Of a stretch of DNA of 64,000 bases, positions 2,070-26,669 are shown one piece after another. Origin of the DNA: Candidatus Aenigmatarchaeota archaeon (GTDB lineage Archaea > Aenigmatarchaeota > Aenigmatarchaeia > GW2011-AR5). The stretch's first letter is position 1. Each line of letters starts with the position of its first letter. The notes under the pieces are model-generated. The model did not search any database. It had not been told where the DNA came from and saw nothing but the letters and a program-made list of their open reading frames with translations. The position numbers and the translations under genes are program-made. The DNA is taken from NCBI GenBank assembly GCA_043799385.1, contig JAZDNV010000001.1, positions 1-64,000 on the forward strand. The letters run 5' to 3'.

Positions 2070-2515
2070 TTATAGAAGATTTCCTTCCGCAAATCGCGTC
2101 ATTTCTATTCGTATTCGCAGTAATCTACGGACTTCTATCAAGCGTGAAGCTCTTTGGCGAACAGAATAACCGGGTATCCGTGCTGATAGCACTGATAATC
2201 GCATTCTTTGCGATTATGTATTCGCCGCTGGTCAACATATTCTATGAATTCATGCCAATCGCAGCGATAATTCTGGTAATACTGTTTTTTGTGGTGTTCA
2301 TAAAAAAACTGATGCTCGACGGCGGCGGAAAAGACTCGCTACCAATAGCGGTATCATTAGCGGTGATGCTGACTGTTCTGGGTATATTATGGAATCGCCT
2401 GGGCTTCAGCATCGGTTCGATATCGTCAGAGAACATGCTCTGGATAATCGGTCTAGCAATAGTAATTATTTTGCTTTTTGCCGTTTATTCACATAAGCCC
2501 GACGAAAAGAAGTAA
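2066..2515 (+). CDS. Multi-pass membrane protein (tandem paralog 1)
   Basis: FLFVFAVIYGLLS motif shared with the next two genes; ATGA overlap with upstream gene. Confidence 0.8.
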   Translation: MIIEDFLPQIASFLFVFAVIYGLLSSVKLFGEQNNRVSVLIALIIAFFAIMYSPLVNIFYEFMPIAAIILVILFFVVFIKKLMLDGGGKDSLPIAVSLAVMLTVLGILWNRLGFSIGSISSENMLWIIGLAIVIILLFAVYSHKPDEKK

Positions 2516-2586
2516 CCTGTAATTGAATTGTAATTTTTGGATTTTGCTTCGATAAATATATAAGAGGGCGGAGGTAATAGAATACT

Positions 2587-3117
2587 ATGGCTGACCCGTT
2601 CACGACGCTGGTGCACAATCTAAATGCGATGGGATTCTATACTTTTCTGTTGCCATGGCTGTTCGTTTTCGCAGTCGTATACGGGCTTTTATCTACGGTA
2701 AAGCTCTTTGGCGAACAGAACAACCGCATATCTGCGCTGATAGCATTCATAGCAGCGTTTTTCGCTGTTAGCTTTGCTGGACCGATGATGGCCGCTTTCT
2801 TTACCAACCTGTTTGGCGGCGCAACAATTATACTAGCAGGCATTCTTGTCATTGTTCTGCTGCTCGCTATGGCAGGATTCAAACTAGACGCGTTGACTGA
2901 CATCAATAAAATGAGTGTAAAAATAGTTATTCTGCTCCTAATAATAATTGGCATTATAGTCTTCTTGGCGGCAACAGGGAACATAAGCGGTGTTGTATTG
3001 AATGATGATCTGATAACAATGATATTCATTATTGTGGTAATTCTATTTGCCATATGGTTCGTTACAGGTGGAGAAAAGAAAGGTAGCGCAACAACAGGTC
3101 AGAAACCTACTGGTTAA
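2587..3117 (+). CDS. Multi-pass membrane protein (tandem paralog 2)
   Basis: GGAGGT RBS; LLPWLFVFAVVYGLL motif. Confidence 0.85.
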   Translation: MADPFTTLVHNLNAMGFYTFLLPWLFVFAVVYGLLSTVKLFGEQNNRISALIAFIAAFFAVSFAGPMMAAFFTNLFGGATIILAGILVIVLLLAMAGFKLDALTDINKMSVKIVILLLIIIGIIVFLAATGNISGVVLNDDLITMIFIIVVILFAIWFVTGGEKKGSATTGQKPTG

Positions 3118-3134
3118 AATTTTATTGTGATTTT

Positions 3135-3602
3135 ATGAACCCGTTCGAGCTTCTTGTCAGTAACCTCAATCAGATGGGGTTCTTTGGATTCTTGCTGCCA
3201 TGGCTTTTGACATTTGCAGTATCATACGGTTTGCTGGTTAAGTCAAAAGTGCTTGGAGAAGACGTCAAGATAGTCGGCGTCGTATCGCTTGTTCTATCAT
3301 TCTTTGTTATCGGATATGGCGGACTCGCTCTTGGCTTATTTTTCCAGAAGCTTTTCGGCGTTGCAGTTGTCGTAATTGGCGGCATTCTTGTAATCGTATT
3401 GTTCGTCGGAATGGCTGGCGGTGATATATCGAAACTCGTTGAGAGCAAGGCAGTGCTTGCGTTGATAGCAGGAATCGGCATAATCGTATTCGTGCTGACA
3501 GTTGGAAATTTGGGTATAGGGGTGAACAACGAAATCATAAGCGCGATCTTCGTTGTGATAATAATGGCAGTCGCGATAATGTTCATAACCGGTGGGAAAT
3601 AA
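3135..3602 (+). CDS. Multi-pass membrane protein (tandem paralog 3)
   Basis: PFxxLVxNLNxMGF..FLLPWL..FAV.YGLL, collinear with paralog 2. Confidence 0.85.
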   Translation: MNPFELLVSNLNQMGFFGFLLPWLLTFAVSYGLLVKSKVLGEDVKIVGVVSLVLSFFVIGYGGLALGLFFQKLFGVAVVVIGGILVIVLFVGMAGGDISKLVESKAVLALIAGIGIIVFVLTVGNLGIGVNNEIISAIFVVIIMAVAIMFITGGK

Positions 3603-3880: not shown

Positions 3881-4501
3881 CTACTGGTAAACCTTCTCTT
3901 CCCTTCGCGACTTCATTTCATGTATCATTGCGGACAACGATTCAATGTTTCTCGTCAACGATGGCAGGAATTGCTTGAACGCCTTTTCCAGGCCGCCGAC
4001 GCGCGCTTCCAGATTGTCCAGGCGGTCATTAATTTCGCTAATGCTTGTTTCTAATTCTTTGTTTTCGACAGGAACAATTAGTCCGCCTTCCTGCCGCGAT
4101 AACCTCAACTCGCTCATCTCTTTCTTGACTTCCGCAATCCTGTCTTCAAATTTTTTCCACTTATCTTCGACTATTCCTTCAACTAACTCTTCGACAATCA
4201 TGTCGGGTGAAACCCTATCATCAAATTCGATGTCCGGCATCTCCAACTCCGGTTGCTCCAAGTCAGATAGACCTTCTATCTCGACCGTCTCAGATGCTGA
4301 TGTTGGGCGTTCAGCACCTTTCGGTTCATCCTCAACGCCTGCTTTAACTGCCTGAAGCATTGCGGACTCAATCTCATCGTATGAGTGGCCTTCTGACTTT
4401 AGCTGCTTGATTATATCCTTGTCAGCCATGCCCTTAGCCGTCAACATCTGAACTTCCTCCACTGATATGGGCCTTACATCCTTTTTTTTCTTGAAAAACA
4501 T
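3881..4501 (-). CDS. Acidic coiled-coil protein
   Basis: GGTGA RBS; N-terminal helical domain, acidic linker, C-terminal heptads. Confidence 0.8.
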   Translation of the reverse strand: MFFKKKKDVRPISVEEVQMLTAKGMADKDIIKQLKSEGHSYDEIESAMLQAVKAGVEDEPKGAERPTSASETVEIEGLSDLEQPELEMPDIEFDDRVSPDMIVEELVEGIVEDKWKKFEDRIAEVKKEMSELRLSRQEGGLIVPVENKELETSISEINDRLDNLEARVGGLEKAFKQFLPSLTRNIESLSAMIHEMKSRREEKVYQ

Positions 4502-4519
4502 GCTTTCACCAAATTATTA

Positions 4520-4876
4520 TTATTCACTCGTATTATTATCCTTTTGCATAGCGTTATCAGGGTTCAACAGGTCAAGCATCGTTTCCAATTCCTTGACGTC
4601 TTTCTTCATCGCATAGCGCACTGCTTGTTTATTCATCTTATCCATGTTGTTTTTTATCTTTGTAACATCGTCGCTAAGGCTTTTTAAAATAGCATCAGCC
4701 TCTGTGAACTTGCTGTTAATTTTCCTTATCTTCTCCAGGCTCGTCTCCTCCAACGACTTCGTCCGGTTTTCCTGTATTTGTATCTTGTCTTCAAGGCTTC
4801 GCACTCTTCTATTGATGTCGTTTGTCCTTTTAACAAGTTCCTGGAGAATGATGTCAGTCTTGTCGGTCACAGGCAT
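4520..4876 (-). CDS. Coiled-coil protein
   Basis: Continuous heptad pattern; co-oriented with the 3881-4501 gene. Confidence 0.8.
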   Translation of the reverse strand: MPVTDKTDIILQELVKRTNDINRRVRSLEDKIQIQENRTKSLEETSLEKIRKINSKFTEADAILKSLSDDVTKIKNNMDKMNKQAVRYAMKKDVKELETMLDLLNPDNAMQKDNNTSE

Positions 4877-4923
4877 ATTTACCTATTATTTTTTCTTGTA
4901 TATTAAGCTAATTCCTCTGAAAG

Positions 4924-5014
4924 TTTGCACCTAAAGAAAGCTATTGACTTGTAAACAATGTCAATAGCTTACCGTTGATGGATGTCAAAAAGACTCCATC
5001 ACTTTAGGTGCAAA
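4924..5014. repeat. Structured intergenic element 1 (three-way junction)
   Basis: P1 tttgcacctaaag 4924-4936 / ctttaggtgcaaa 5002-5014; P2 aagctattgac 4938-4948 / gtcaatagctt 4960-4970; P3 tgatgga(t)gtc 4976-4986 / gactccatca 4992-5001. Confidence 0.85.
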
Positions 5015-5070
5015 AGTTTTCTGAAACTAATCGAAAATATTAATAGATTGGACAATTATTATAGATAATA

Positions 5071-7296
5071 ATGGTCTGCAACTACGAATACGACGAAGAG
5101 ACGCAGAAGATGCGCGTTAACTGTCTTGGATGCATATACAGTTCGAATATCGAGGATTCTGACGTATGCATGGCAGCGGTCATAGACAAGCTGCTTGAAT
5201 TGAAAAAGGTTGTTCGTGTCGTATTAGCTGAAAGGCGTGAGCATGAATACGACTTCTCCGAAGTACGGTTGCTATTGGAAATAGCCAACGCCATAGAAAA
5301 GATAACAAGGGAGAAGGTAATTTCAATAAGGAATACCTCCATAAAGGGGTGCGAAAAAGATGCGCCTGGAAGATACAGTTTTTTACAGGGCATTCTCTAC
5401 GAGCTGCGGCATGATCCGATCGACGCCTACAAAAAACTTCTCAGGGAGATAAGGCACGCGAATGTCAACATTGAAAAGTATAGCGGAATAGAAAAGAGTT
5501 GCTTGGAGCACTACATGAACAATGCGCTACTGCCAATGCAGAGAATAATCGAGTCCTGCAGATTAATCGATATGGTAAAAGATGAGTTAACAGAACACAA
5601 AGACCGTGCATTATATAGAAAGATATTTCATCCGACTGTAAGGCCAAACTTCATGTATACGAGATACGTTACAACGCCGCCGACAAACGCTGAATTAATC
5701 GAGCGCTACAAGGTTGGCGACAGCGACGTTGAAATCTATCAGATAGCCGGCAAGACGAGAAAGCTCTACCACATAGTACCGCCGGAATTCAGACTGAGCG
5801 ATGATGAATATACGCTGCTAGACGCGGCGAGAAATTATATAGGCAGGCACGAGCCACGCGGCATGGAGATGGCAGAACCGGACAAAGTCAGGGAAAATAT
5901 ATTCAGGATAAGCATCGACCTGCTGACTGATATCTCAAGGAGCATGAGGATAAATATAACTGAGGTTGGACTAAGAAGACTTGCAAACATACTCACGAGA
6001 TATACGGCAGGGTTGGGTATACTAGAATTGCTTCTGCAGGATGAAAAAATCCAGGATATAATGATAAATTCTCCTGTCGGGCTGGCACCGATATACATAT
6101 TTCATGAAAACTACTATGACTGCGAGACTAACATGGTTCCGACCATGGAGGACGCGGATTCATGGGCAACCAGATTTAGATTGCGTTCAGGCCGACCATT
6201 AGACGAGGCGAATCCTGTTCTCGATACAGACATCACTGTTCCAGGCGGACGCGCGAGAGTCGCGGCAATAACAAGAAGCCTTTCACCTGACGGATTAGGC
6301 TTCGCGCTTCGACGTCATAGAGACAAGCCATGGACATTCCCGCTGTTCATCAAAACAAAGATGATAGATTCGTTTTCAGCAGCGCTGGTCTGGTTTTTGA
6401 TTGACGGTTCCAGAACGCTTCTAATTGCCGGAACAAGGGGCAGCGGAAAATCCAGTTTTTTAGGCGCTTGCATGGTTCAGATAATGCCGAAACTGAGGAT
6501 AGTCTCGGTTGAAGATACGCTTGAACTGCCGATAGAGCAGCTACGCGAGCTTGGTTATAATATAGAAAGGTTGAAATCACGTTCAGTCATAACACATGTG
6601 GAAACAGAATTGCCGGCAGAAGAGGCGCTAAGAACCGCGCTGCGTCTTGGCGATTCGTGTTTAATAATAGGCGAAGTCCGCTCTCGCGAGGCGCTAGCTT
6701 TGTACGAGGCAATGAGAATTGGCGCATTGGCTAACGTTGTAGCAGGTACGATACACGTCGACAGCGCTTACGGCGTTTTTGATCGTGTCGTCAATGACTT
6801 GGGCGTTCCGCCAACCAGCTTCAAGGCGACCGACATTGTCCTTGTCTGCAACGTCCTACGATCACCTGACGGATTGCACTCATTCAGACGCGTTGTTGAA
6901 TTAACCGAGGTCAGAAAGCATTGGAAGAACGATCCTCTGGAAGAGGGCGGTTTTGTAAATTTGTTAGAGTACTCGGCTCTGGATGATATGCTGAAACCGT
7001 CAAAAACACTGATCATGGGCGAGTCGGTCGTGTTGAATGAGATAGCAAACCGCGTGAGGGAGTGGCGCGGCAGATGGGATGCAATTTGGGATAATATCAA
7101 GCTCAGGGAAAACATATTGCAAACATTGGTGAATTATGCAAAATCAAAGAATAAACCAGAGCTTCTGGAAGCTCCGACTGTGATAGAATCGAATTCCGCA
7201 TTCCACCTGATAAGCAACGAGGTAAAGGAGGAGCTAGGGAAATTGGACAGCAAGATTATATACAGCAAATGGCTGGAATGGCTAAATACCAAGTGA
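5071..7296 (+). CDS. Type II/IV secretion or type IV pilus assembly ATPase (VirB11/FlaI/PilB family) with long N-terminal extension
   Basis: Walker A GTRGSGKS, Asp box VEDTLEL, Walker B IIGEVR, His box GTIH. Confidence 0.92.
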   Translation: MVCNYEYDEETQKMRVNCLGCIYSSNIEDSDVCMAAVIDKLLELKKVVRVVLAERREHEYDFSEVRLLLEIANAIEKITREKVISIRNTSIKGCEKDAPGRYSFLQGILYELRHDPIDAYKKLLREIRHANVNIEKYSGIEKSCLEHYMNNALLPMQRIIESCRLIDMVKDELTEHKDRALYRKIFHPTVRPNFMYTRYVTTPPTNAELIERYKVGDSDVEIYQIAGKTRKLYHIVPPEFRLSDDEYTLLDAARNYIGRHEPRGMEMAEPDKVRENIFRISIDLLTDISRSMRINITEVGLRRLANILTRYTAGLGILELLLQDEKIQDIMINSPVGLAPIYIFHENYYDCETNMVPTMEDADSWATRFRLRSGRPLDEANPVLDTDITVPGGRARVAAITRSLSPDGLGFALRRHRDKPWTFPLFIKTKMIDSFSAALVWFLIDGSRTLLIAGTRGSGKSSFLGACMVQIMPKLRIVSVEDTLELPIEQLRELGYNIERLKSRSVITHVETELPAEEALRTALRLGDSCLIIGEVRSREALALYEAMRIGALANVVAGTIHVDSAYGVFDRVVNDLGVPPTSFKATDIVLVCNVLRSPDGLHSFRRVVELTEVRKHWKNDPLEEGGFVNLLEYSALDDMLKPSKTLIMGESVVLNEIANRVREWRGRWDAIWDNIKLRENILQTLVNYAKSKNKPELLEAPTVIESNSAFHLISNEVKEELGKLDSKIIYSKWLEWLNTK

Positions 7297-7300
7297 GCGG

Positions 7301-7600
7301 ATGATTCAATACATCTTTGTTAATCTGACCGTATTCATAATCTCATTTATTCTGATGCAATACGCTTTCGGTCCAAACTCAGAAATATGGAAGATGCCGA
7401 CATTCAAATACAACAGAAAGAAGGGCATACTGTCTGTGATTATCTGGCTATTAATAACGTACAACTCTTTTTTTGGTGTTGATATTTTTTTATTCATAGC
7501 GCTTGTATGCTTTTGGATAATCACGGTGCCAATATCCTACGTAATATCGTGCATAATAATATCTAATTACGATAAATTCATAGCTCAAATAAAAAAATAA
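7301..7600 (+). CDS. Small membrane protein
   Basis: Three hydrophobic segments; directly follows the ATPase. Confidence 0.6.
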   Translation: MIQYIFVNLTVFIISFILMQYAFGPNSEIWKMPTFKYNRKKGILSVIIWLLITYNSFFGVDIFLFIALVCFWIITVPISYVISCIIISNYDKFIAQIKK

Positions 7601-7622
7601 AAGATAAAAAATCGAAATGGAT

Positions 7623-7913
7623 TTATTTCTTCAAGATCAGTTCTATCGTTGAAACGTTAAGTTTTTCCTTGTTTTCATCTTCTATTACTTCTGTTCCTAT
7701 TTCTATCTTGTCAACTTTTGCTTCTGGAACGAACTTGTTCTTAACAATCTCTGCAACGTCGACTACCTTGCTTATCGCGCGTCCACGAGCCTTCAGATGG
7801 ATTTCTGTCTGACCAGCGCCGAACTGAGTTACGACTGCCAGCACATAGGCCATGTTCGGTTTCTTTCCGATGAAAACAACGTTGTCTCTCATTTCCCTTG
7901 TCTTTTCTGTCAT
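7623..7913 (-). CDS. albA: DNA/RNA-binding protein Alba
   Basis: VFIGKKP..YV, KARGRAISKVVDVAE, VSTIELIL; GAGGTG RBS. Confidence 0.97.
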   Translation of the reverse strand: MTEKTREMRDNVVFIGKKPNMAYVLAVVTQFGAGQTEIHLKARGRAISKVVDVAEIVKNKFVPEAKVDKIEIGTEVIEDENKEKLNVSTIELILKK

Positions 7914-7993
7914 TGTTCACACCTCGTCATGTTATATGCTACACTGTGATGTTAGCTGTCGTTAATATATTCAAAAAGTTTTTAACCCTTTCT

Positions 7994-8091
7994 ATACTGC
8001 TAACTCAATGGGTATTAACATGCTTTGCAGTTAATACCCAGATTGAAGCAATAGCATTAACAGATGCTATTGCTTGTTGAGTTAGCAGTAT
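7994..8091. repeat. Structured intergenic element 2 (three-way junction)
   Basis: Perfect stems: P1 15 bp atactgctaactcaa 7994-8008 / ttgagttagcagtat 8077-8091; P2 11 bp 8009-8019 / 8030-8040; P3 12 bp aagcaatagcat 8046-8057 / atgctattgctt 8064-8075. Confidence 0.9.
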
Positions 8092-8096
8092 TATTC

Positions 8097-8498
8097 CTAT
8101 CTGCAGCAGTGACTACCAAAAGAACAAGTGCCTGGTATCTCTTTTTCACCGCTACTGCAAACGGGTTTGCATTCGCCTTTCAAGTCAACGCAAGCGACTT
8201 GTGGGCAGTAGCCTTCGCAGCATCTCAATAAGCACTCTCTATCGAGCGAAGAACATAGTTTCAGTCCTTTGCATACGTTCTCAAGACTCTTTTTTGTGTC
8301 GTCGTTAGCGCCTGACGGATTGTTGCAGTCTTTATCCGTCTGAACGTACTCGTGGCATTTTATTGCTCTTTCCTGCTCCAATTTTACTATATCTGTCTGC
8401 TTGAAAACCGGCATGAAAAAGAGCAGAAGTGCGACTAAAACGATTCCGGCGAGCATCAGTATTACAACCGTCTCTATCGGCAAGCTTATACCCTTCAT
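8097..8498 (-). CDS. Type IV pilin-like protein, Cys-rich
   Basis: Class III signal MKG|ISLPIETVVILMLAGIVL; Cys-rich C-terminus. Confidence 0.85.
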   Translation of the reverse strand: MKGISLPIETVVILMLAGIVLVALLLFFMPVFKQTDIVKLEQERAIKCHEYVQTDKDCNNPSGANDDTKKSLENVCKGLKLCSSLDRECLLRCCEGYCPQVACVDLKGECKPVCSSGEKEIPGTCSFGSHCCR

Positions 8499-8539
8499 AG
8501 ATATCTATTCCTTGCAGCAGATATAAAATTAATTAGATA

Positions 8540-9295
8540 TTATCCTTTCAGTTTTATAGCCAGAAACACCGGAACTTTTTCGAATTTATCGCCGGAATCG
8601 CGGTAATATTCGTAGCTGTCTAGGAATGTCGCTTTTATATCATAGCGACTACCAGCAATATTTTTTTCAAGCTTGTACTTCACGCCGAATTGATTGGCAA
8701 TCCGCTTTGCCTCGTTATCAAAGTAACTGTCTGCATTGCCGCTGAATGCCATTGCAGATTTCACTAGCTCGTTGGCCGCAGAAACGAGCTTTTTGAACTT
8801 GGTCTTTATTTTGTTGACGTTCGTGGTTTTTGCAGAAATCTCAGTATTACCAAAAGACATGTCTAATTTCTGGGTCACTTCTGAAACTATCTCATCGTCC
8901 TTAACCGAAAATTTCGCCTTGATGTCGCTTATCTTCACATCAACGCCATTCACCTTGATGCTCTTCTGTATTTTCAGATAATCATTCATGGATTCTGCCA
9001 AACTTTTTGCTATGTCATCGTCATTCTTTACCAAAGACTGTCCGTCCCTGTACCAATACTCCTCGCCCAGATTACCGGACTTGAATATCGCCTGCACAGC
9101 AGATAGAAACCATGTCTCGCCAAGTGATTTATCGATAATATAGAACGTGTTTTCTGCCTTGATTAATTCTGCCTTCTCGAATGATATCTTTTCCTCGGCA
9201 TGCGCAGCTCTTGTATTCATCAGCGTAAAGCCGGATGCAAGGGCTATCATCAGAATGATGAATATTATTGACGTAAATGTTGCATCTGCCTTCAT
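8540..9295 (-). CDS. Pilin-like protein
   Basis: MKA| followed by a hydrophobic helix; coupled to neighbours. Confidence 0.7.
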   Translation of the reverse strand: MKADATFTSIIFIILMIALASGFTLMNTRAAHAEEKISFEKAELIKAENTFYIIDKSLGETWFLSAVQAIFKSGNLGEEYWYRDGQSLVKNDDDIAKSLAESMNDYLKIQKSIKVNGVDVKISDIKAKFSVKDDEIVSEVTQKLDMSFGNTEISAKTTNVNKIKTKFKKLVSAANELVKSAMAFSGNADSYFDNEAKRIANQFGVKYKLEKNIAGSRYDIKATFLDSYEYYRDSGDKFEKVPVFLAIKLKG

Positions 9296-9705
9296 GATAT
9301 CACCAAATAACCGATTTTATCTTTGTAGAACAACGGAATCGTGAATTCAAAGCCTCTTTCTTTGCCGACTGACATGTATGTCTTTGTATCCTTCAGGGTG
9401 ATTTTGTAATTAATATCGTATTCTTTCAAAAACTCCTCAAATGAATTTTTTATTTCTATGTCTGCCCTGCCGATCGCGATTGTTTCAATCGATTGCTCGA
9501 ATAGCGATGAATCCTTCCATTGACTCAGGGCCTGCGCAACCAGATACGGCTCGTTCGTATATTCAACGAATGCTATGGAATAGCTCTGCGAGCCTTTTCC
9601 AAAGTTTTGCGTTAATATGCTCACAAAGAGTATGAAGATTATTACGAAAACAAATATCACCCACAGTATCACTGTCCAGAATATTCCGGGAAGCATGCCT
9701 CTCAT
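9292..9705 (-). CDS. Pilin-like protein
   Basis: MRG| followed by a long hydrophobic helix; ATGA overlap. Confidence 0.7.
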   Translation of the reverse strand: MRGMLPGIFWTVILWVIFVFVIIFILFVSILTQNFGKGSQSYSIAFVEYTNEPYLVAQALSQWKDSSLFEQSIETIAIGRADIEIKNSFEEFLKEYDINYKITLKDTKTYMSVGKERGFEFTIPLFYKDKIGYLVIS

Positions 9706-10490
9706 TTTACATCATCCACACACAATGCGATAATAGTTTCGCTTTTTTCAGAAATCCAACTATCACTTATGTCGCTGCATTTACCATCATTTGGCAATGA
9801 GACACCGGTTCGGATTGGTACGGCCTTTAACACGACTTCTGCCTTGTTTACTTTACTTGGAGAGATAAAATGGATTTCCGGCGAATCTGGAAGATACCTG
9901 CAGTCGCTGTCATATATCTTTTTATCAAGCGTCTTTCCGTAGAAGCATACTTGATTCGTCGCTGCATCGTCGTCTTTGTTTCTCACAGGCATAACATTTT
10001 TCCATGGTATAGCAATTTCCTGCGCTTTTTTTGATTTATATGCGTTTTCTATCAGACATGTTATTCTCGCCAGCCAAGAATCATAAACAACAAGCGTCAT
10101 TTTCGCTGGAACGGTTTTGTCGTTATAATATAGAGAAACCGGCGCTTCTATCACTGCGGCATTCTCCTTATTTGCCGTGGAATAACCGAATTGGAATATC
10201 TTATTGTTTTCCAAGTCTTCTATCAACAGGTGATAAGCGAATTGACAGTGCCTGACGTACGGCTCTGTTTTCGTGTTATGATATTTTTCAAGCTCGCTGT
10301 GATTGAATATCGTTCGCTCCACGGTGAGTTTGCTGTTTATTATATTCTCTGACAGCTCTATCGCAAATCGATCGGTATCCTTTTTATCCATGTTGCTCAC
10401 AGAAATCGTTGATAGCGACGAGATAAAAAAGACTAACAGCAATACGGGAAGCACTCGGAATATCTCGAACAAAGCCTCAACTATATTCAT
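9702..10490 (-). CDS. Pilin-like or exported protein
   Basis: N-terminal TM helix; 4-nt overlaps with both neighbours. Confidence 0.7.
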   Translation of the reverse strand: MNIVEALFEIFRVLPVLLLVFFISSLSTISVSNMDKKDTDRFAIELSENIINSKLTVERTIFNHSELEKYHNTKTEPYVRHCQFAYHLLIEDLENNKIFQFGYSTANKENAAVIEAPVSLYYNDKTVPAKMTLVVYDSWLARITCLIENAYKSKKAQEIAIPWKNVMPVRNKDDDAATNQVCFYGKTLDKKIYDSDCRYLPDSPEIHFISPSKVNKAEVVLKAVPIRTGVSLPNDGKCSDISDSWISEKSETIIALCVDDVK

Positions 10491-10852
10491 TTTACCACTT
10501 CTATCCTTACCGCTCCATCATTAACAAAACGGATTTTCCTGGCATTGCATTCTATTTTCGCTGGCTCGATTGATTTTATCAGATTAACGGAATAGCTCGC
10601 ATCCTTCATTGTTACAGTAACGGCTGAATCGATTTTTATCACGCAGTCAGTACCGGGCAATTCGTATATGAACGTTGTAACATTCGGTGAAACAGCAAGT
10701 ATGTTTATAATACCAGAGATTTCTGACGCCTGATACTTGACGTCGTTTTTGACTATCGTATCGGCCTGGGCAGAAAGCGGGTTAAATGCTGCCACGACAA
10801 TTAACAGAGCTATCGCAATAGAAATAAAACTCTTCTGTAACTTCTCGCTCAT
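10487..10852 (-). CDS. Minor pilin-like exported protein
   Basis: N-terminal hydrophobic helix, then A.EI...IN helix and beta-rich tail. Confidence 0.65.
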   Translation of the reverse strand: MSEKLQKSFISIAIALLIVVAAFNPLSAQADTIVKNDVKYQASEISGIINILAVSPNVTTFIYELPGTDCVIKIDSAVTVTMKDASYSVNLIKSIEPAKIECNARKIRFVNDGAVRIEVVK

Positions 10853-10896
10853 ATCTATAATTGTATCTACGTTTAATAAAATAATTTTTTAACAAA

Positions 10897-12273
10897 TCAA
10901 GGCCATATCCAGTTCTCGTCCGGTTTCAATGTCTCTATGAAAGCGTTTGGAGTCGACGGCGCCATTTTAAGGAGGAACATGTTGTTCACATATTCTGTCG
11001 CATAGGTTACCGGCGTCATGTAATTTATCACAGCAGCGGCTGTACTAGCTGATATGCCGAGCGCTCCGGCTGTGCCTATTGCAGTTGCTTCTGTTGCTGT
11101 CAATACCGCGCCGACTGTGCCAAAGCCAGCGACAGTGATTGGTGCTGCTCCGACAGCTGCAACAACGACGAGCGCTACGCCAGCTGCGGCGCCGACTGTA
11201 ATTCCTGCCCACTTCAGCCATGATGTTTTTGGATTGTTAGTGAAGCAGAAGCCATCTTCGTTGGAAAGCACTATTCGCACGCATGGGAGATGCTCTGGTT
11301 TTGCTGCCTCTTTTTTTACAGCTATGAAATCCAGGCACGATGTATGACTACCTATTATCTTGCTTTCGCCTTTTTCGTTATAGCTGTAAATGGGGTACGT
11401 AATATTATTTTCACAGCCGCCGAGGCTATCTAAAAACGTTGTTCTATGCCCGTCCGCACAGTCGTCAACGAATATCTTGGCCTTGATCTTGCACGGGCTT
11501 GCCAGATAGAAATCAGAATACCTCATGTGCTCATCAGGGGAGTCATAAACGAACTGGATGTAATCCATATTCTTGCAATATTTCAGCGGATATGTATTGA
11601 CTGCCTTCGATGTTTTTAGGCATAATGTATTGTCGCCGCAGGAAAGGTATTTTGACATTGTCTTATTGTATGAATCAATCGGTGGGTTTGTGAACGTGAA
11701 TTTTCCGCTCTCCCATTTTCCCAACGGCTCTTTCATCTTCGTTCCAGTCGTAGGGTCTATATTGCCCAGCAATATGTTATTCACAAATGCTCCCTCGAGT
11801 TTTTCATTTTTGCTGGAGCGCTTATCCTTTGCAGCGCTTATCAATTTTTCTATATCGTTGTTCTTTTCGTCAAGCTGCGATACTATTCTCTGGTCCATGT
11901 CGTGATACATCTCCCACGCGACTGCTTCGCCGACAGGAAACATCTCATAATATAAGATATATCTAGGCTCGCCGATTGCTTTTATGACGAATCTTCCGAC
12001 AAGGCTCTCGGATATCGGTCCTATTAGCGGCGCGTGAGCGAACCACACGTTTTGCGGCAGCTCAACATTCATCTCTATTGCATTATCTTTGCTGAGTTCC
12101 TTGAAGCAGGCTTCGTCTATGGCGCTACCTAAACGCGAAAAGCTAGACAACGCGGTCTGCTCATACGTTGTCTGTACTGCGGCAAGAATTATTACGATCA
12201 ACAGGCCTAGACCAAGGAACATTATTCCCAACGACACGATTAGGTCGAGCTTTACCTCTATTGTGTATGACAT
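10897..12273 (-). CDS. Large pilin-like/adhesin protein with internal Gly/Ala-rich hydrophobic region
   Basis: N-terminal TM helix followed by SFSRLGSAIDEAC; multiple Cys; about 60-aa hydrophobic G/A segment near the C-terminus. Confidence 0.8.
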   Translation of the reverse strand: MSYTIEVKLDLIVSLGIMFLGLGLLIVIILAAVQTTYEQTALSSFSRLGSAIDEACFKELSKDNAIEMNVELPQNVWFAHAPLIGPISESLVGRFVIKAIGEPRYILYYEMFPVGEAVAWEMYHDMDQRIVSQLDEKNNDIEKLISAAKDKRSSKNEKLEGAFVNNILLGNIDPTTGTKMKEPLGKWESGKFTFTNPPIDSYNKTMSKYLSCGDNTLCLKTSKAVNTYPLKYCKNMDYIQFVYDSPDEHMRYSDFYLASPCKIKAKIFVDDCADGHRTTFLDSLGGCENNITYPIYSYNEKGESKIIGSHTSCLDFIAVKKEAAKPEHLPCVRIVLSNEDGFCFTNNPKTSWLKWAGITVGAAAGVALVVVAAVGAAPITVAGFGTVGAVLTATEATAIGTAGALGISASTAAAVINYMTPVTYATEYVNNMFLLKMAPSTPNAFIETLKPDENWIWP

Positions 12274-12399
12274 CTATCCACCGGTAATGTTGGCCAAAAA
12301 TTTGTCAAGCCCTGGTATGACGCCTAGGAAAAGACTGAGCACTGCCAAGAGCACAACAAACAACAAAACCAAGCTTACGACAACATATTCCATTCTCAT
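12274..12399 (-). CDS. 41-aa pilin-like micro-protein (not in ORF track)
   Basis: Hand translation MRMEYVVVSLVLLFVVLLAVLSLFLGVIPGLDKFLANITGG; its TAG abuts the ATG of the next gene. Confidence 0.75.
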   Translation of the reverse strand: MRMEYVVVSLVLLFVVLLAVLSLFLGVIPGLDKFLANITGG

Positions 12400-12403
12400 T
12401 CAA

Positions 12404-12541
12404 TCATCTCATTATTCCTAATATCTTCAGCAGGTTTTGCATTATTCCCCCCTGTAATGAAAGTGTCATCAGAACTCCCACAACTACTATCACTATTACG
12501 AGCAGAATAATCCAGTATCCGTGCTCAAAGACGTTGACCAT
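12404..12541 (-). CDS. 45-aa pilin-like micro-protein
   Basis: MVNVFEHGYWIILLVIVIVVVGVLM...; start at 12541 lies 4 nt after the upstream stop. Confidence 0.7.
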   Translation of the reverse strand: MVNVFEHGYWIILLVIVIVVVGVLMTLSLQGGIMQNLLKILGIMR

Positions 12542-12545
12542 AGAA

Positions 12546-13994
12546 TCACTTCCACTCGCTGCCCTTGCACATATAATCCTTATTATCAACTGTTATAATA
12601 TCATTTTCTGATATCTCATCACATGCTATCCAACCGCTACTGCTGCACAGAAGGTCGTATTTTGGCTTCCAGTAATGCCCCTTGTCGTTTCTTTCCAAAA
12701 GACGGCAGTCACCACATTTGTCAACTGATTTATCTGTATATTTCGCTCCGCCTATTGTCTCATCTTTCTTTGACGGGTCAGGCCCGGATTTTTCATATTC
12801 TATGCAGTAGTCATGACCCTTGTCAGACGTAATACAGAAGTCACATTCGCCTTGCGATGTCAACAGTTCCTGACAGTTGAAATCGATCATATAACTTTTG
12901 ATATCATCCCATAATTTCTCGCTATTCTTCTTTATCACTGCACCAGGTTTGATGTACCAGACACTCGCCTTATCCTTTATGATAGATTCTTCATTGACAG
13001 CGAGAATCGCACATGAAGCACCATCCTTGTACTTGAAATCATCGAGTGCGAACTTGAATTCCCCTGCATCCTGCTTCCTGTCAGTCGTGAAATCAAAATT
13101 CCATACCTCTACCGAATCGGCAGGGTCGATTTTAATGAACAATGCATTTTTCTCGGCAACTGAAGCAGCACATTCTGTCTTGAAACCAATGCTTGCAAAA
13201 CCGATGTAGTAAGCCGGGCATTTTTTTATAAGCTCGGAATAGACGCCAGAGCCTTCTAGCGATAATTCAGAACCGGACGAGACCTGAGTCTCGAATCGTA
13301 CTGTGTCGCCGCCCAAATCGCGACACTTGGTAACGCAATTTCCAAATTGCCTTTGATATTTTCCGTCCTCCCATAACGGCTGGCATTGCTGCAAAGGCGT
13401 ACCGAAGCATTCATAATTATTTTTTATCCCTCCCAATGGCTCGCAATCGGCTTTCGTAAAATCAATCCGTGTTTCAGCCTTGTTTATAGTTATTGTCTTG
13501 TCTGTTTCTTGGATATAACAGGTTCCTGTCTTTCCGGCATTGCAGCAGTACCAGCTCCACTGTTTTGACTGCTTCGAGCTTTTCATGTAATCAGTTACGC
13601 ATTCGCTTTCTGCAAAGAATGACAGATGAAGGAATTCCGTGTCTTTCAACGCAGTTCTCGTCCTGAGCTTTAATTCTGGAGACGCGCTTTTCTCCTTCGG
13701 GTAGTTTATCACCTTTCCGTCCCACATCAGCTTTTCATTTATGTCTCCGATAACATAGAATTTCAACTCTTTTTCCTGTTCGTAGACAAAATTCAGGTTG
13801 CTTACCTTGATTGTATAGACATAGTCGTTGCCTGTTTTTTCGCATGACGCCTTTGCATTCTCTACGCCTTCAGTCGTGAATGAATGCTCATCAATACCGA
13901 CAGGAGTCGGTTTCGTAAGAAATATAATAATGACCGTCAGGACTACTATCATGACGAATATCCAGAAAACCGTTTGCATCTCCAGTCCTTTCAT
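12546..13994 (-). CDS. Large Cys-rich pilin-like adhesin
   Basis: MKG|LEMQTVFWIFVMIVVL class III-like signal; many paired Cys. Confidence 0.8.
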   Translation of the reverse strand: MKGLEMQTVFWIFVMIVVLTVIIIFLTKPTPVGIDEHSFTTEGVENAKASCEKTGNDYVYTIKVSNLNFVYEQEKELKFYVIGDINEKLMWDGKVINYPKEKSASPELKLRTRTALKDTEFLHLSFFAESECVTDYMKSSKQSKQWSWYCCNAGKTGTCYIQETDKTITINKAETRIDFTKADCEPLGGIKNNYECFGTPLQQCQPLWEDGKYQRQFGNCVTKCRDLGGDTVRFETQVSSGSELSLEGSGVYSELIKKCPAYYIGFASIGFKTECAASVAEKNALFIKIDPADSVEVWNFDFTTDRKQDAGEFKFALDDFKYKDGASCAILAVNEESIIKDKASVWYIKPGAVIKKNSEKLWDDIKSYMIDFNCQELLTSQGECDFCITSDKGHDYCIEYEKSGPDPSKKDETIGGAKYTDKSVDKCGDCRLLERNDKGHYWKPKYDLLCSSSGWIACDEISENDIITVDNKDYMCKGSEWK

Positions 13995-14030
13995 GGATAG
14001 ATTATGTTTTGGATTAAATAAATAGTTGTA

Positions 14031-14117
14031 AAGCTTTGCACAAAAACTAGGCTATCATCTTTGCTATGATAGTCTTACCATCGATGTAATTGCGCGTTCA
14101 CTTTTTATGCAAAGCTT
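14031..14117. repeat. Structured intergenic element 3 (related to element 1)
   Basis: P1 aagctttgcacaaaaa 14031-14046 / tttttatgcaaagctt 14102-14117 (one mismatch); P2 aggctatcat 14049-14058 / atgatagtct 14066-14075; shares tttgcac, cttacc.t.gatg and tcacttt...tgcaaa with element 1. Confidence 0.75.
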
Positions 14118-14122
14118 GGTTG

Positions 14123-14932
14123 TCATGCTTTTGGCACAATCATAAAAGTGTGCAGGCCAAGAAAATCTCTACCGCACATAGACCGCAGGTATTTGTATTC
14201 ATCCTCTTTTTCAGTGCACTTCGTCTTCTTCCAGAAGCTTATATCTAATGCGTCTCCAGCTTCGTAATACTCGCCGCCTTTGACACTTATCTCGACTTCT
14301 TCGCAGCTGAACATTTTCACGTGAACCGTCCCTTTGCATATGTCCAAGTAGCGCTCGCATTTATCATAATTTGTTTCCTTGCACTCTTCCAGTTCGAATA
14401 ACCTATAATCCGACATGCATTCAACAATGAATTTCGCTTTGCAGCCGTCTTTCTTTTCAAGTGTGACTGTAAAATTACCATCAGCTGAAAAAAGGAATGA
14501 ATCGTGCAATTTCATACGGCCTTTGTAATAATCGCCCTTTTTCATTATTCTCGGCGAGCTGCTCAAAATTTCTGCAGAGATCAGTCCATCAAACGATGGT
14601 TTTTCGGGAGTTAACGTGAATCTATTGCCATCGCTAATCGCCTTCTCGTCGACACCTTTGAAGCTGAAGAGCGGTATCACATCAATCGTATCCTTCAATT
14701 CGCCTGAATATTTAACGATGCCTGAAAATTTTACAGCATAGTTGTATTTGTCATCGATTTTCTTGTCAGAAACATCTATATCAGGCTTGCCTACAACAAC
14801 CACGTTTACCAACGGCGATGGCTTTAGCTCATCTGCGGATATCCTGCCGCCAAAAATAGACATCGCAACAGCAAGGCATACTAATGCGATTACGATAAGG
14901 ACTACTACCTCCTGCATCTCCATGACAATCAA
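14123..14932 (-). CDS. Pilin-like exported protein
   Basis: MEMQEVVVLIVIALV N-terminus resembling the LEMQTV start of 12546-13994; Cys pairs. Confidence 0.75.
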   Translation of the reverse strand: MIVMEMQEVVVLIVIALVCLAVAMSIFGGRISADELKPSPLVNVVVVGKPDIDVSDKKIDDKYNYAVKFSGIVKYSGELKDTIDVIPLFSFKGVDEKAISDGNRFTLTPEKPSFDGLISAEILSSSPRIMKKGDYYKGRMKLHDSFLFSADGNFTVTLEKKDGCKAKFIVECMSDYRLFELEECKETNYDKCERYLDICKGTVHVKMFSCEEVEISVKGGEYYEAGDALDISFWKKTKCTEKEDEYKYLRSMCGRDFLGLHTFMIVPKA

Positions 14933-15319: not shown

Positions 15320-16078
15320 CTATCGGATGAATGGGAAGAATTTTCGATACCATATCTCGGCCTTTACCTCGCGTCCTATGAGACGGCTTGCAAGATTTCT
15401 AATCTCGCGGCTTGAAATGCTGGACGGCTTGTGATGAACAATCGGTGTTCTGATTGCTATTGCCTCCTGCACGGCAACGTCTTCCGGCACCTCGGCAAGC
15501 AATTCTACGTCACCTAGCAACCTGAGAATATCACGCCTGTTTAGTTCATGCTTCCTGCCGGTGACCCTGTTTACGACAACGCCTGATATCTTTGTTCCCA
15601 TCTGCTCGGCTAATTTTGCGGCTTTCAGCGCATCGGTAACAGCCGTTAGCTCGGGATTCGTTATGAGCAGCAATTCATCTGCGCATTCCATTGCGGCTAA
15701 CGCCTCGCGGCCAAGGCCGGCTGCTGCATCTATTATTACAATATCAACGTTGCCAAGAAGGTCCAGAATTGCCGATGATAAACCACGGACGTCAACGCCC
15801 TTTAAATCTTTCAGCGCGATTCCGGCAGGAATTATCTTCAGTCCGGATGAATGTTCATAAATCGCGTCCTGTATTTTAGCTTTGCCTTTAAGGACATCGT
15901 GTAACGTCGTTGGATAGAGCGGAACGCCGAGATGCAACCCAAGATTTGGCGTCGTGAGATTCGCGTCAAGAACAACGACATCCTTGCCGAATTCCGTCAA
16001 TGCGGCTCCAAGATTTGCTGCGATTGTTGTCTTTCCAGCGCCACCTTTTCCAGAAACACAAGCGATTATGCGGGTCAT
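15320..16078 (-). CDS. minD: MinD family ATPase (archaeal)
   Basis: Deviant Walker A SGKGGAGKTT, DANLTTPNLG, DAAAGLG, C-terminal amphipathic helix WYRKFFPF. Confidence 0.93.
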   Translation of the reverse strand: MTRIIACVSGKGGAGKTTIAANLGAALTEFGKDVVVLDANLTTPNLGLHLGVPLYPTTLHDVLKGKAKIQDAIYEHSSGLKIIPAGIALKDLKGVDVRGLSSAILDLLGNVDIVIIDAAAGLGREALAAMECADELLLITNPELTAVTDALKAAKLAEQMGTKISGVVVNRVTGRKHELNRRDILRLLGDVELLAEVPEDVAVQEAIAIRTPIVHHKPSSISSREIRNLASRLIGREVKAEIWYRKFFPFIR

Positions 16079-16206: not shown

Positions 16207-16321
16207 TGGGCGCGACGGGATTCGAACCCGCGACCCCCTGCTGACTTCTTTCCATGCACGCTTTCTTTCTAAGAAAGGCGTTTAGAAGGCAGGTGCTCTA
16301 TCCAAGCTGAGCTACACACCC
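16207..16321 (-). tRNA. tRNA-Arg(UCU) with 40-nt intron at 37/38 (16243-16282)
   Basis: Acceptor GGGTGTG/CGCGCCC, anticodon stem CCTGC/GCAGG, loop CT-TCT-A, T-loop TTCGAAT; BHB-like CTTC/GAAG helix; CCA not encoded. Confidence 0.93.
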
Positions 16322-16379: not shown

Positions 16380-19193
16380 ATGGATTTCAGAAGTATAGAA
16401 AAGAAGTGGCAGAAGGCGTGGGAAAAGGAGCGGATATTCCAAGCAGATGTATCAAAAAAGAAAAAGTTCTTTGTAACATTTCCATACCCATACCTGAACG
16501 GCTCGATGCACATCGGCCATAGCTATTCCTTTCTACGTTGCGACGTATACGCAAGATACAAAAGAATGCTTGGCTTCAATGTTTTGTTTCCGCAGGGCTT
16601 TCACGCCACGGGCGAACCTTTGTTAGGAGCAATAGAAAGGGTAAAAGCAGGCGACAAGGTACAGATAGAAACGTTCAAATCATTCGGCGCATCGAAAAGC
16701 GAGCTAAAAAAATTCATAAAGAACCCTGAATATGCAGCAAGGTTCTGGATGAAAAGATTCATAGAAAGCATGAAGAGTGTTGGTGGTTCGATAGATTGGC
16801 GCAGAAGCTTTGTAACAGCAATAGACGACCGATACTCGAAGTTTATAGAATGGCAGTACAACACGCTGAGGAAAAAAGGCTACGTTGTTCAGGGAACGCA
16901 TCCTGTTATCTGGTGCCCGAAATGCCTAAGCCCGACCGGCGATCACGACCGATTAGAAGGAGAGGGCGAATCGCCTGTCGACTACATTCTGATAAAATTC
17001 GGTTTTGATGGCTATGTTCTACCTGCGGCTACGTTAAGGCCTGAGACGATTTATGGCGTGACAAACATGTGGGTAAACCCGAATGTAGATTATGTAAAAG
17101 CAAACGTCGGCAACGAGGTGTGGATAATAAGCGAGGAGGCAGCGGAAAAGCTTGTCGACCAGCTGAAGGATGTAAAAATAACAGGCCGTATAAAAGGGGA
17201 GAAATTAGTTGGAAAGCATTGCACAGACCCTATAAGCAACAAGAAGATTCCAATACTTCCTGCCGGATTCGTTGACCCGTCTTCGGCGACTGGCATTGTG
17301 ATGTCTGTGCCAAGTCACGCGCCATACGATTGGATTGGCATAAAGGAGGTGATGGACTGCAATATGGAACGATATGGGATATCAAAAGACGAGCTCGAAC
17401 CTATATCGCTAATATCAACTCCTGGTTTTGGCGAGCATCCTGCCATCGAAATTTGCAAAAGGATGGGGATAAATTCATCGAAAGAAATCGAGAAATTAGA
17501 TGAAGCAACGAATGTGGTTTACAAGAAAGAATTCCATCTAGGCGTCCTGAACGACAACTGCGGCGAATATTCGGGTTTACGAGTCTCTGAATGCAAAGAA
17601 AAATTATCAATCGAATTCATAGAAAGGGGGATTGCAGACGTTCTGTGGGACTGCAAAGCGGTCGTATGCCGCTGCACAACAAAATGCCGTGTAAAAATAC
17701 TTGAGAATCAGTGGTTCCTGAAATACTCAGACGGAAACTGGAAAAAGAAGGTAAAGAGATGCGTAGAAAGGATGGAGATATGCCCAGTCGAAGCTAAGGC
17801 TAATTTCATAAACACAGTTGACTGGTTAAGGGATAAGGCGTGCACAAGAAAGACGGGATTGGGAACAAAACTACCATGGGACAATTCGTGGATAATAGAA
17901 ACGCTGAGCGATTCTACGATTTACATGGCATACTACACGATTGCGAGAATGATGAATGAGAAAAAGATAAGCGCTGATAATCTCAACGACGACGTTTTCA
18001 ATTACGTGTTTCTCGGTAAAGGGGATTTGAAGACGATTGCGAAAAAGAGCAGGTTGAAAAAGAGCATAATAGATGGGATGAAAAATGAATTTGATTACTT
18101 CTATCCTGTGGATTTCAGGAACTCAGCCAAGGAACTCATACAGAATCACCTGACGTTCTTTTTATTCCACCATACTGCATTGTGGCCTGATAACAAATGG
18201 CCAGTGTCGATAGGCGTAAACGGCTTCGTAAACGTTGAAGGCGAGAAGATGAGCAAATCGCGCGGCAACGTAATACCGATATCAGACATAATCAAGCAAT
18301 TCGGTGCGGACCTAGCGAGAATTAATATAGTTGCATCAAGCGAGGACATGAACGATGCCGACTGGCGTGCGGAGAATATAAAGGGCTATCGTGCGAGGAT
18401 AGAGTTTCTCTTCGACGTTGCAAAAAACATGAAAAAGGCAAGAAGGAAGTCGGTTGGAAACGCGGATTTGTTCTTGCAGAGCAGAATCCAGAAGTGCGTA
18501 AAGAACGCGAGCGAAAACTATGATGCAACGAAATTCCGTTCAGCGATTCAATCCGCAATGTTCGGCTCAACAAACGCGTTGAAGTGGTATTTATCAAGAA
18601 GCGGTGGCATAAAAAATGCAAATAAAAAGATATTGTCAGACTCATTGGCGACCGTAGTAAAATTACTCACGCCTGTAATACCGCATTCGTGCGAGGAATT
18701 GTGGAAGTTGTTGGGCAATAGGCAATTTGTATCGCTTGAAGCATGGCCATCCCAGAACGAAAAACTGATAAACGCTGAATCTGAAAAATGCGAAGACTTA
18801 GTTGCGAGGGTAATCGAGGACGTTGAGAACATCAAGAAGATGCATAATTTAAAACCAAAAAGCGTTTCCATATTTGTCGCGGAAAAGTGGAAATTTGACG
18901 TATACAACAAGATACTGACGAATAAAGATAAGCCGATAAACGAGATAACAAAGGAGATAATGGAAGAAGGTAATGAAAAGACGACAATAGCCTTCGTCCA
19001 GTCGCTGTATAAAAAAATCAACGAGATTCAACCAGTGATAGAAAGAAAAAAGCAATTTGAGATTCTTGAAGAAGCGAAAGAATTCCTAGCAAAAGAGATT
19101 AAATGCAAGATAGATATAATCAACGCGGAAAAGAGTGATGCACCAAAAGCGAAATTATCCACGCCACAGAAGCCGGGAATACTACTGGAGTAA
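16380..19193 (+). CDS. leuS: Leucine--tRNA ligase (archaeal type)
   Basis: FPYPYLNGSMHIGH, KMSKS, editing motif ATLRPET, DWRRSF. Confidence 0.97.
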   Translation: MDFRSIEKKWQKAWEKERIFQADVSKKKKFFVTFPYPYLNGSMHIGHSYSFLRCDVYARYKRMLGFNVLFPQGFHATGEPLLGAIERVKAGDKVQIETFKSFGASKSELKKFIKNPEYAARFWMKRFIESMKSVGGSIDWRRSFVTAIDDRYSKFIEWQYNTLRKKGYVVQGTHPVIWCPKCLSPTGDHDRLEGEGESPVDYILIKFGFDGYVLPAATLRPETIYGVTNMWVNPNVDYVKANVGNEVWIISEEAAEKLVDQLKDVKITGRIKGEKLVGKHCTDPISNKKIPILPAGFVDPSSATGIVMSVPSHAPYDWIGIKEVMDCNMERYGISKDELEPISLISTPGFGEHPAIEICKRMGINSSKEIEKLDEATNVVYKKEFHLGVLNDNCGEYSGLRVSECKEKLSIEFIERGIADVLWDCKAVVCRCTTKCRVKILENQWFLKYSDGNWKKKVKRCVERMEICPVEAKANFINTVDWLRDKACTRKTGLGTKLPWDNSWIIETLSDSTIYMAYYTIARMMNEKKISADNLNDDVFNYVFLGKGDLKTIAKKSRLKKSIIDGMKNEFDYFYPVDFRNSAKELIQNHLTFFLFHHTALWPDNKWPVSIGVNGFVNVEGEKMSKSRGNVIPISDIIKQFGADLARINIVASSEDMNDADWRAENIKGYRARIEFLFDVAKNMKKARRKSVGNADLFLQSRIQKCVKNASENYDATKFRSAIQSAMFGSTNALKWYLSRSGGIKNANKKILSDSLATVVKLLTPVIPHSCEELWKLLGNRQFVSLEAWPSQNEKLINAESEKCEDLVARVIEDVENIKKMHNLKPKSVSIFVAEKWKFDVYNKILTNKDKPINEITKEIMEEGNEKTTIAFVQSLYKKINEIQPVIERKKQFEILEEAKEFLAKEIKCKIDIINAEKSDAPKAKLSTPQKPGILLE

Positions 19194-26616: not shown

Positions 26617-26669
26617 GAAGAAATTATATAATGTTTAATTTTTAAAACTAAGATGAATGAAACAAAAGA

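Follow-up and report, generated by a model that had tools for sequence, protein, structure and literature searches.

The described mobile elements closest to the sequences considered here are the insertion sequences (ISs) of the IS903 group and the miniature transposable elements with inverted repeats (MITEs) of bacteria and archaea. In a published account, the inverted repeats of IS903B on the left (IRL) and on the right (IRR) both begin with GGCTTTGTTGAATAAATC, and the element generates a direct repeat of 9 bp (PMC10569121). The work on MITEAba12 of Acinetobacter describes a 113-bp MITE with 16-bp terminal repeats and 9-bp duplications that is mobilized by ISAba12 (PMC6382973), and a census of prokaryotic MITEs found them at high density in some genomes of DPANN archaea (PMC11602168). 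Here we analyze three short imperfect palindromes, denoted E1, E2, and E3, which lie at a pilus-type locus in a window of 64,000 nt (positions 1 to 64,000 of contig JAZDNV010000001.1, assembly GCA_043799385.1) from a Candidatus Aenigmatarchaeota archaeon.

We put at roughly 0.92 the probability that E1–E3 are non-coding MITEs of 85–100 bp, that is, non-autonomous derivatives of, or hitch-hikers on, IS903-type insertion sequences of the IS5 family. The elements, assigned to two families, A and B, and the repeats that flank two of them are located as follows.

4913..4921, no strand: left target-site duplication of E1, TCCTCTGAA, matching the right copy at 7/9 positions
4922..5016, + strand: E1, family-A MITE copy of 95 nt with a complete three-way junction
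5017..5025, no strand: right target-site duplication of E1, TTTTCTGAA
7994..8091, no strand given: E2, family-B MITE copy of 98 nt, with ends ATACTGCTAACTCAA that are unlike those of family A
14023..14031, no strand: left target-site duplication of E3, degenerate, TAGTTGTAA, matching 14117-14125 at 7/9 positions
14032..14116, + strand: E3, family-A MITE copy of 85 nt, the third arm (P3) of which is deleted or degenerate
14117..14125, no strand: right target-site duplication of E3, TGGTTGTCA, the last three bases of which are the stop codon of the open reading frame (ORF) at 14123-14932 (−)

A Dispersed Repeat Family and Its Target-Site Duplications

The window is part of a 166-kb contig (C25) of a 786-kb genome assembly (G000) that comprises 31 contigs and is 91% complete. 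A short-word BLAST search with E3 matched many contigs of this genome, and iteration of nhmmer from the same element converged on 57 matches, counted on both strands, which correspond to 29 loci on 15 contigs and include E1 and E3. Since the locus on contig C24 is a fragment at a contig end and its flank is that of the copy on C26, the number of distinct family-A loci is 28. These two records (C26:16651-16733 and C24:1-44) show a copy at two contig ends with identical flanks, and it is an element copy that broke the assembly at this point.

Only two family-A loci are present on the 166-kb contig, and within the 64-kb window a covariance model built for the family (R1) detects no locus other than E1 and E3. 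The first-pass annotation, which was made from this stretch alone, had seen no comparable fold outside 4.9–16.2 kb and thereby implied a restriction to the pilus locus; this does not hold, given 26–27 more family-A loci and one more locus of the E2 family on other contigs. When 30 elements were placed at random in 5000 trials, at least one 9.2-kb stretch of the genome held three or more of them in 64% of the trials, so that the pilus locus is not enriched beyond chance.

The family-A copies of this genome are 83–99 nt in length and have ends of the form AGCTTTG-NNN-AAAAA ... TTTTT-NNN-CAAAGCT, with 15-nt terminal inverted repeats and with A5 and T5 tracts that hardly vary at the inner ends of these repeats. 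The interior consists of a hairpin P2 (GGCTATC...GATAGCC), a linker, and a second hairpin P3 (TGGACATC...GATGTCCA). At least 12 of the 15 bp of the closing stem can form in all 28 aligned copies.

The 9 bp that flank each family-A copy are direct repeats, perfect (9/9) at 7 of the 29 loci, with 8/9 matches at 8 loci and 7/9 matches at 9 loci. The same procedure applied to 2000 random places yielded none at 9/9, 21 at 8/9 or better, and 208 at 7/9 or better. The 7/9 duplications at E1 and E3 are as expected for older insertions.

Furthermore, contigs of three groundwater-metagenome DNA runs from one study were compared with the window over positions 4500-14400. One contig of run X1 joins position 4915 directly to 5020, skipping 4916-5019, with 7 letters that fit both sides. 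The skipped 104 nt equal the 95-nt E1 plus one 9-bp repeat, and the joint is an unoccupied target site. Another contig of the same run (record 8) covers 13753-14106 and departs from the window there by 18 differences and a deletion of 2 nt, about 5% divergence, so that E3 is present in that related population. Polymorphism for presence or absence between populations was observed for E1 only, and no such joint was seen at E2 among the contigs compared. One of four options offered by the first-pass annotation was a "REP/MITE-like" element, and that option proved right: the folds are dispersed repeats with 9-bp duplications, and one of them, E1, is absent from a related population.

Folds of the Three Elements

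The three folds were found where the first-pass annotation had placed them and with the shapes it had described. E1 and E2 are very stable three-way junctions, and the third arm of E3 is weak. An inverted-repeat scan gives perfect closing stems of 13 bp for E1 (4924-4936/5002-5014) and 15 bp for E2 (7994-8008/8077-8091), the latter inside a longer pair of 28-nt arms, and a stem of 16 bp with one mismatch for E3 (14031-14046/14102-14117). As RNA, E1 and E2 fold into clean three-way junctions at -48.3 kcal/mol (z -9.3) and -55.1 kcal/mol (z -10.8), respectively; for each, none of 200 dinucleotide shuffles is as stable, and the opposite strand is equally stable. The RNA fold of E3 is weak, with z -2.2 on the + strand, where 6/200 shuffles are as good, and z -3.9 on the − strand. 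Folding with DNA parameters agrees (z -10.6 for E1, -12.0 for E2, and -2.5 for E3). The third stem of E3 is weak because this element is a copy that lacks P3.

The reported sequence similarity between E1 and E3 was borne out, in that the same covariance model matches both: E1 at 4921-5017 with 70.3 bits and E3 with 64.4 bits, P3 forming 2 of its 10 pairs in the latter. E1, which was also an nhmmer match, is a diverged copy that retains 12 of the 15 model pairs in the closing stem by helix count. E2 has the same architecture as family A and, in agreement with the earlier remark that it shows no evident identity to E1, has no match to the family-A covariance model at E<=1.

No ORF of at least 50 aa was found inside E1 or E3. 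A 60-aa ORF (7898-8080, +) spans most of E2 and overlaps the palindromic repeat, and we take it as spurious. A search of the window against Rfam 15 at gathering thresholds returned a tRNA as the sole match and none on the elements; in a permissive search, the best matches on the elements reached 24–30 bits against thresholds of 88–100.

Copies in Related Genomes and a Sister Family

BLAST of one family-A copy against 40 relatives gave only one partial match, and detection of more distant copies required the covariance model. With R1, matches were obtained in 13 of the 69 further genomes examined from this order, namely 12 of 43 in the same family, the single genome (1/1) of a second family, and none of the remaining 25. 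The 21 copies read from these 13 relatives have closing stems of 15–17 bp that mostly start with GGCTTTG, two inner hairpins, and a linker of 5–9 nt; many are flanked by perfect 9-bp repeats, and P2 and P3 vary greatly in sequence. Longer variants of about 125–150 nt, with extra hairpins in the P3 loop, were observed at L057 in genome G043 and among matches of 124–153 nt in G013 and G056; these may be nested insertions or a larger subfamily.

E2, which was missed both by the nhmmer profile of family A and by the covariance model built from it, has a second copy in G000 (C11:44910-44982) with a 9/9 duplication. Five further copies of this type occur in 4 of the 69 other genomes, which together with the two in G000 makes seven copies of family B; 3 of the 7 carry 9/9 duplications, two of these in relatives. 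A 22-nt P2 core is common to family-A copies of genome G052 and family-B copies of G013, and E2 has this core with one compensated base-pair change. Families A and B are therefore related, and the geometry shared by E1 and E2 reflects common descent rather than independent invention.

Terminal Repeats and Candidate Transposases

Compared by eye with the published end of IS903B, copy L183 matches at 15 of 18 positions and E3 at 11 of 18. Genes with the PF01609 domain (IS5-type transposases) are present in 23 of the 69 relatives, and several of them end beside termini of this kind. In sister genomes, the IS at locus L096 is 909 bp long and carries GGCTTTGTAGAAAA at each end, and locus L099 has the end GGCTTTGCACAAAAACTAG, which is nearly identical to that of the MITEs in G000. 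The NCBIfam model that best fits the sister-genome transposases is NF033579 (IS5 family), with 2 of 5 proteins reaching the cut-off, and tblastn against plasmids retrieves IS5-family transposases at about 24% identity, including the ISPpa3 family. ISPpa3a is assigned to the IS903 group (PMC3281130).

Searches for single ends gave less. The end-motif search in G000 detected only solitary look-alikes with no partner end (C23:2237, C21:20380, and C10:11611), and no transposase gene was adjacent to the solitary ends of relatives G013, G043, and G056 in the five stretches read. An origin from IS6/IS26-type elements was considered separately and rejected: PF13610 genes occur in 24 of the 69 relatives, yet such ends were absent beside all 12 of the loci read.

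A pattern scan of one genome per species for such ends 50–80 nt apart yielded at least 117 stretches, of which the 80 listed were examined; the taxa named here are thus a sample. Among these 80, the flanking repeats match at 9/9 positions in 43 and at 8/9 in 9, most of the hosts are Planctomycetota and Acidobacteriota, with some Nitrososphaera and others, and 61 fold as one long hairpin with no junction. Hence the ends are a widespread transposase recognition sequence, and the three-way layout belongs to the lineage of small archaeal genomes.

Elements of this wider kind (L111-L190), that is, 85–110-nt MITEs with GGCTTTG-NNN-AAAAA ends and 9-bp duplications, are common in metagenome-assembled genomes (MAGs) of Planctomycetota and Acidobacteriota. 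One acidobacterial MAG holds dozens of copies, and Nitrososphaera has them as well.

Maintenance of the Three-Way Junction

All three helices are maintained by compensatory changes. Across the 28 copies of G000, 93.6% of the alignment cells are paired and 22 of the 40 pairs have changes on both sides; none of 500 shuffles of this alignment reaches any of five measures, and shifting the partner reduces pairing to 35–44%. In the 19 distinct copies from relatives, 95.9% of the cells are paired and 31 of 36 pairs are changed on both sides, in an alignment that was fitted to the model and so leans towards structure. The copies are related by descent, and the covariation counts overstate the number of independent events.

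The compensatory changes show no preference for one strand, with 26 G-T against 24 A-C cells. Among the copies between genes in tandem, 7 have the orientation of the genes and 11 the opposite one, and 8 of the 27 classifiable copies, E1 included, are located between divergent gene starts. This strand symmetry, the lack of orientation bias, and the sites between divergent starts argue against a host RNA encoded on one strand. The elements belong to no Rfam family and covariation is present, but it is strand-symmetric and independent of gene orientation.

Both inner arms are kept in 15 of the 28 copies, and P2 or P3 is lost in the other 13. There are three distinct P3 deletions, each found at 2–3 loci with good duplications; arm-deleted variants have therefore multiplied, and the junction is not needed for spread. 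Taken together, the fold looks like a DNA-level property of the element rather than a host RNA.

Genomic Context

The genes next to the three elements that bear on the pilus-related interpretations are the following.

5071..7296, + strand: gene for a type II/IV secretion (pilus/archaellum-type) ATPase, PF00437 T2SSE, E 8.3e-17
8097..8498, − strand: pilin-like ORF of 133 aa, N-terminus MKGISLPIETVVILMLAGIVLVALLLFF, no Pfam match
14123..14932, − strand: ORF of 269 aa with a hydrophobic pilin-like N-terminus, the stop codon of which E3 abuts

E1 sits 56 nt upstream of the start of the ATPase gene, between this start and that of the divergent gene 4520-4876 (−). The N-termini of the other two listed ORFs resemble archaeal pilin signal peptides by eye, and Pfam returned no match for either.

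As the first-pass annotation had stated, E2 and E3 begin 5 nt past the stop codons of these two minus-strand ORFs. This spacing is no rule of the family, in which the other copies lie -18 to +282 nt from the nearest stop codon. In tandem gene contexts, 10 of 18 copies are at most 14 nt from the upstream stop codon, and the distance from the element to the next start is mostly 27–56 nt. Some copies supply the stop codon of the neighboring gene themselves. At C14:38108 (L025) and C21:24521 (L005), the upstream stop codon is partly made of the first bases of the element, and at these two sites the insertion reshaped the 3′ end of the gene. A rough ORF call puts the coding share of the genome at about 92% and the median length of the spacers at 8–79 nt.

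Several other features of the window were noted. A tRNA gene of 115 nt (16207-16321, −), which by its length carries an intron, is flanked by a ParA/MinD-like gene (15320-16078) and a leucyl-tRNA synthetase-like gene (16380-19193). Upstream of the pilus-type ATPase locus, positions 1434-3602 hold four successive small membrane-protein ORFs; the final three look like paralogues, with a common motif at the N-terminus (…LLPWL..FAV.YGLL…KLFGEQNN…). Another three-way-junction fold, with 21-nt closing arms and z -4.2, is present at 26656-26762; it occurs only once in the genome, extends over the 3′ end of the ORF at 26670-27110 (−), has no DNA match in the 43 genomes of the same family, and is unrelated to the MITE families. 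Likewise unrelated to them is a cluster of imperfect inverted repeats (TGAAGTTCAT... motifs) at 41146-41261, the fold of which has z -3.5.

Discussion

The dispersal of E1 and E3 with their relatives, the terminal inverted repeats bounded by 9-bp duplications, the unoccupied site of E1, and the IS5-family transposases beside similar ends in sister genomes all point to MITEs, and an IS903-type transposase is the probable mobilizing enzyme, although none is present in this assembly. Several observations weigh against this interpretation. Neither IS5-type (PF01609) nor IS6-type (PF13610) transposases were found in the 91%-complete, repeat-broken G000 assembly, nor was any full-length element with these ends detected there with three end motifs at up to 3 mismatches. 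In the sister genomes, only one GGCTTTG end was found for most of the transposase genes of about 410 aa, and simple searches gave no matching second end. The target duplication of E2 itself is no longer recognizable (6/9), so that its assignment rests on its relatives, and the empty site of E1 comes from one contig of depth 3.6 in one run and is unreplicated. Finally, the covariation is stronger than a plain decaying repeat needs, which leaves room for an added function of the fold.

Under the MITE interpretation, a DDE transposase acting in trans would recognize the terminal inverted repeats of 15–18 bp, that is, A/GGCTTTG-NNN-AAAAA in family A and a diverged version of it in family B, and would make a staggered 9-bp cut in the target, the repair of which would leave direct repeats of 9 bp. 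The stem that closes the three-way junction would simply be the two terminal repeats paired with each other, and the two inner hairpins would be internal palindromes that travel with the element. In a genome that is about 92% coding, insertions could persist only in short spacers, mostly where the promoter of the next gene is spared, and the frequent adjacency to stop codons would then arise because the survivors are those insertions that leave the next promoter intact. The hairpins are probably kept at the level of the DNA or the element and not for an RNA function in the host. Their maintenance could reflect either selection on transposition or persistence, or correction of quasi-palindromes via template switching.

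Two of the readings entertained at the outset invoke the pilus genes. A structure-defined signal that sets pilin stoichiometry, as suggested by the first-pass annotation, is not supported, given a genome-wide distribution unrelated to pili, which that annotation had itself named as grounds for refutation, and the frequency with which chance alone produces such a cluster. The same annotation considered folded, attC-like sites of recombination at the borders of variable pilin cassettes. In favor of such sites, taken as those of an integron-type system, the elements are imperfect palindromes of attC-like length beside gene ends; by eye, E2 has GCTAAC...GTTAGC near its ends, loosely like the core sites of the attC consensus. 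Yet attC recombination makes no target duplications, whereas 9-bp duplications flank these copies, which moreover are single, kilobases apart, and spread over 14–15 contigs with no arrays. E1 lies between two divergent gene starts, its empty site removes only the element and one repeat with no cassette, and the ends match an insertion-sequence family, so that we give the attC reading hardly any credence. We regard as equally far-fetched the reading as repetitive extragenic palindromic elements (REP/REPIN) moved by a REP-associated (RAYT) transposase of the Y1 type. Short palindromic intergenic repeats in many copies would suit it, but the genome has no match to PF01797 (Y1 transposase) in a search that was positive in 6 of 14 control genomes, and REP elements make no target duplication, in contrast to the 9-bp ones found here.

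The remaining alternatives accept a MITE origin and ask what the junction itself does. We think it unlikely that the three-way junction is a selected property of the element, retained as such across two sister families and no fewer than eleven genera, and not a passive by-product. The idea could take two forms: the folded strand could present both ends to the transposase, or the host could have adopted the copies as orientation-independent gene-boundary elements, with a hairpin and a T5 run on both strands set against stop codons. In the former, the folded single strand would be a substrate or required intermediate of transposition, with the ends joined on the lagging strand, and the junction would be selected at the element level. 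The retention of the architecture while P2 and P3 diverge widely between genera, the strand symmetry, which fits a DNA-level structure, and DNA-parameter folds as extreme as the RNA folds are all in keeping with this proposal. It is rendered improbable by the P3-deleted and P2-degenerate variants that have multiplied, and by the bacterial MITEs with the same ends, most of which (61 of the 80 listed) are one long hairpin; furthermore, IS903-type DDE enzymes are known to act on double-stranded ends, and template-switch correction can yield compensatory changes in palindromes without selection. As for adoption by the host, the junction might serve as a bidirectional transcription stop, a stabilizer of 3′ ends, or an insulator between packed genes. 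Oligo-T runs are the main archaeal termination signal, and in most family-A copies a T5 run comes after a hairpin on either strand; the near-invariance of the A5/T5 tracts, the compensatory retention of three helices over the 28 copies and the 19 from relatives, and the proximity of 10 of the 18 tandem-context copies to the upstream stop codon would also fit such a role. Proposals of terminator-like roles for bacterial MITEs are noted in a review (PMC10969869). We nevertheless hold adoption to be quite doubtful, since neither an orientation bias nor an excess of G-U over A-C is apparent, although an RNA on one strand should show both, a terminator has no role between divergent starts, E2 and the rest of family B are without a T run, 13 of the 28 copies have lost P2 or P3, and the P3-less variants each recur at 2–3 loci. 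Host adoption and a role of the folded strand are possible additions to the MITE interpretation, and the data favor neither.

The structures are real and their interpretation is ordinary, the conserved inner hairpins being a modest curiosity. The result removes a tempting false lead, namely that these folds are pilus regulators or cassette sites, and points to a risk in annotation, where such elements can be mistaken for structured RNAs. It also puts on record a lineage of MITEs in very small DPANN-type genomes, which are usually regarded as streamlined; here the elements account for about 0.35% of the genome (some 30 copies of about 92 nt over 786 kb), interrupt the assembly in at least one place, and differ between close populations. 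Moreover, two families, many genera, and natural arm-deletion variants constitute a natural data set on conserved MITE hairpins.

Relation to Described Mobile Elements

In the literature found on DPANN and archaeal MITEs and on IS903, neither this family, nor the three-way-junction layout, nor the link to IS903 ends is described, the supplements of the census, which possibly list the family, being outside this scope. The MITE lineage of this genome thus appears to be undescribed in print, and the kind of element is known. The closest relatives by their ends are IS903 and IS903B (IS5 family, IS903 group), the ends of which begin with GGCTTTG followed by an A/T-rich stretch and which make a 9-bp duplication (PMC10569121); the IS5-family transposases beside such ends in sister genomes extend the likeness. 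Unlike these ISs, the elements described here have no transposase, are only 85–100 bp long with an interior unrelated to IS903, and reside in tiny archaeal genomes, and the matching transposases of the relatives share only about 24% identity with the IS5-family proteins of bacteria.

In size and organization, the better parallel is MITEAba12, which is also short and non-coding, with 9-bp duplications and with terminal repeats shared with an IS of about 1 kb, the identity to which is confined to the ends (PMC6382973). MITEAba12 differs, as reported there, in folding weakly (about -24 to -27 kcal/mol) and in that its movement was observed in the laboratory (PMC6382973). The family described here is set apart in turn by two internal hairpins that are kept by compensatory change and by the failure to find a co-resident IS in G000. 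Finally, the archaeal MITEs of Sulfolobus, Halobacterium, and Haloquadratum, examples of which are listed in a review (PMC10969869), are elements of the same kind.

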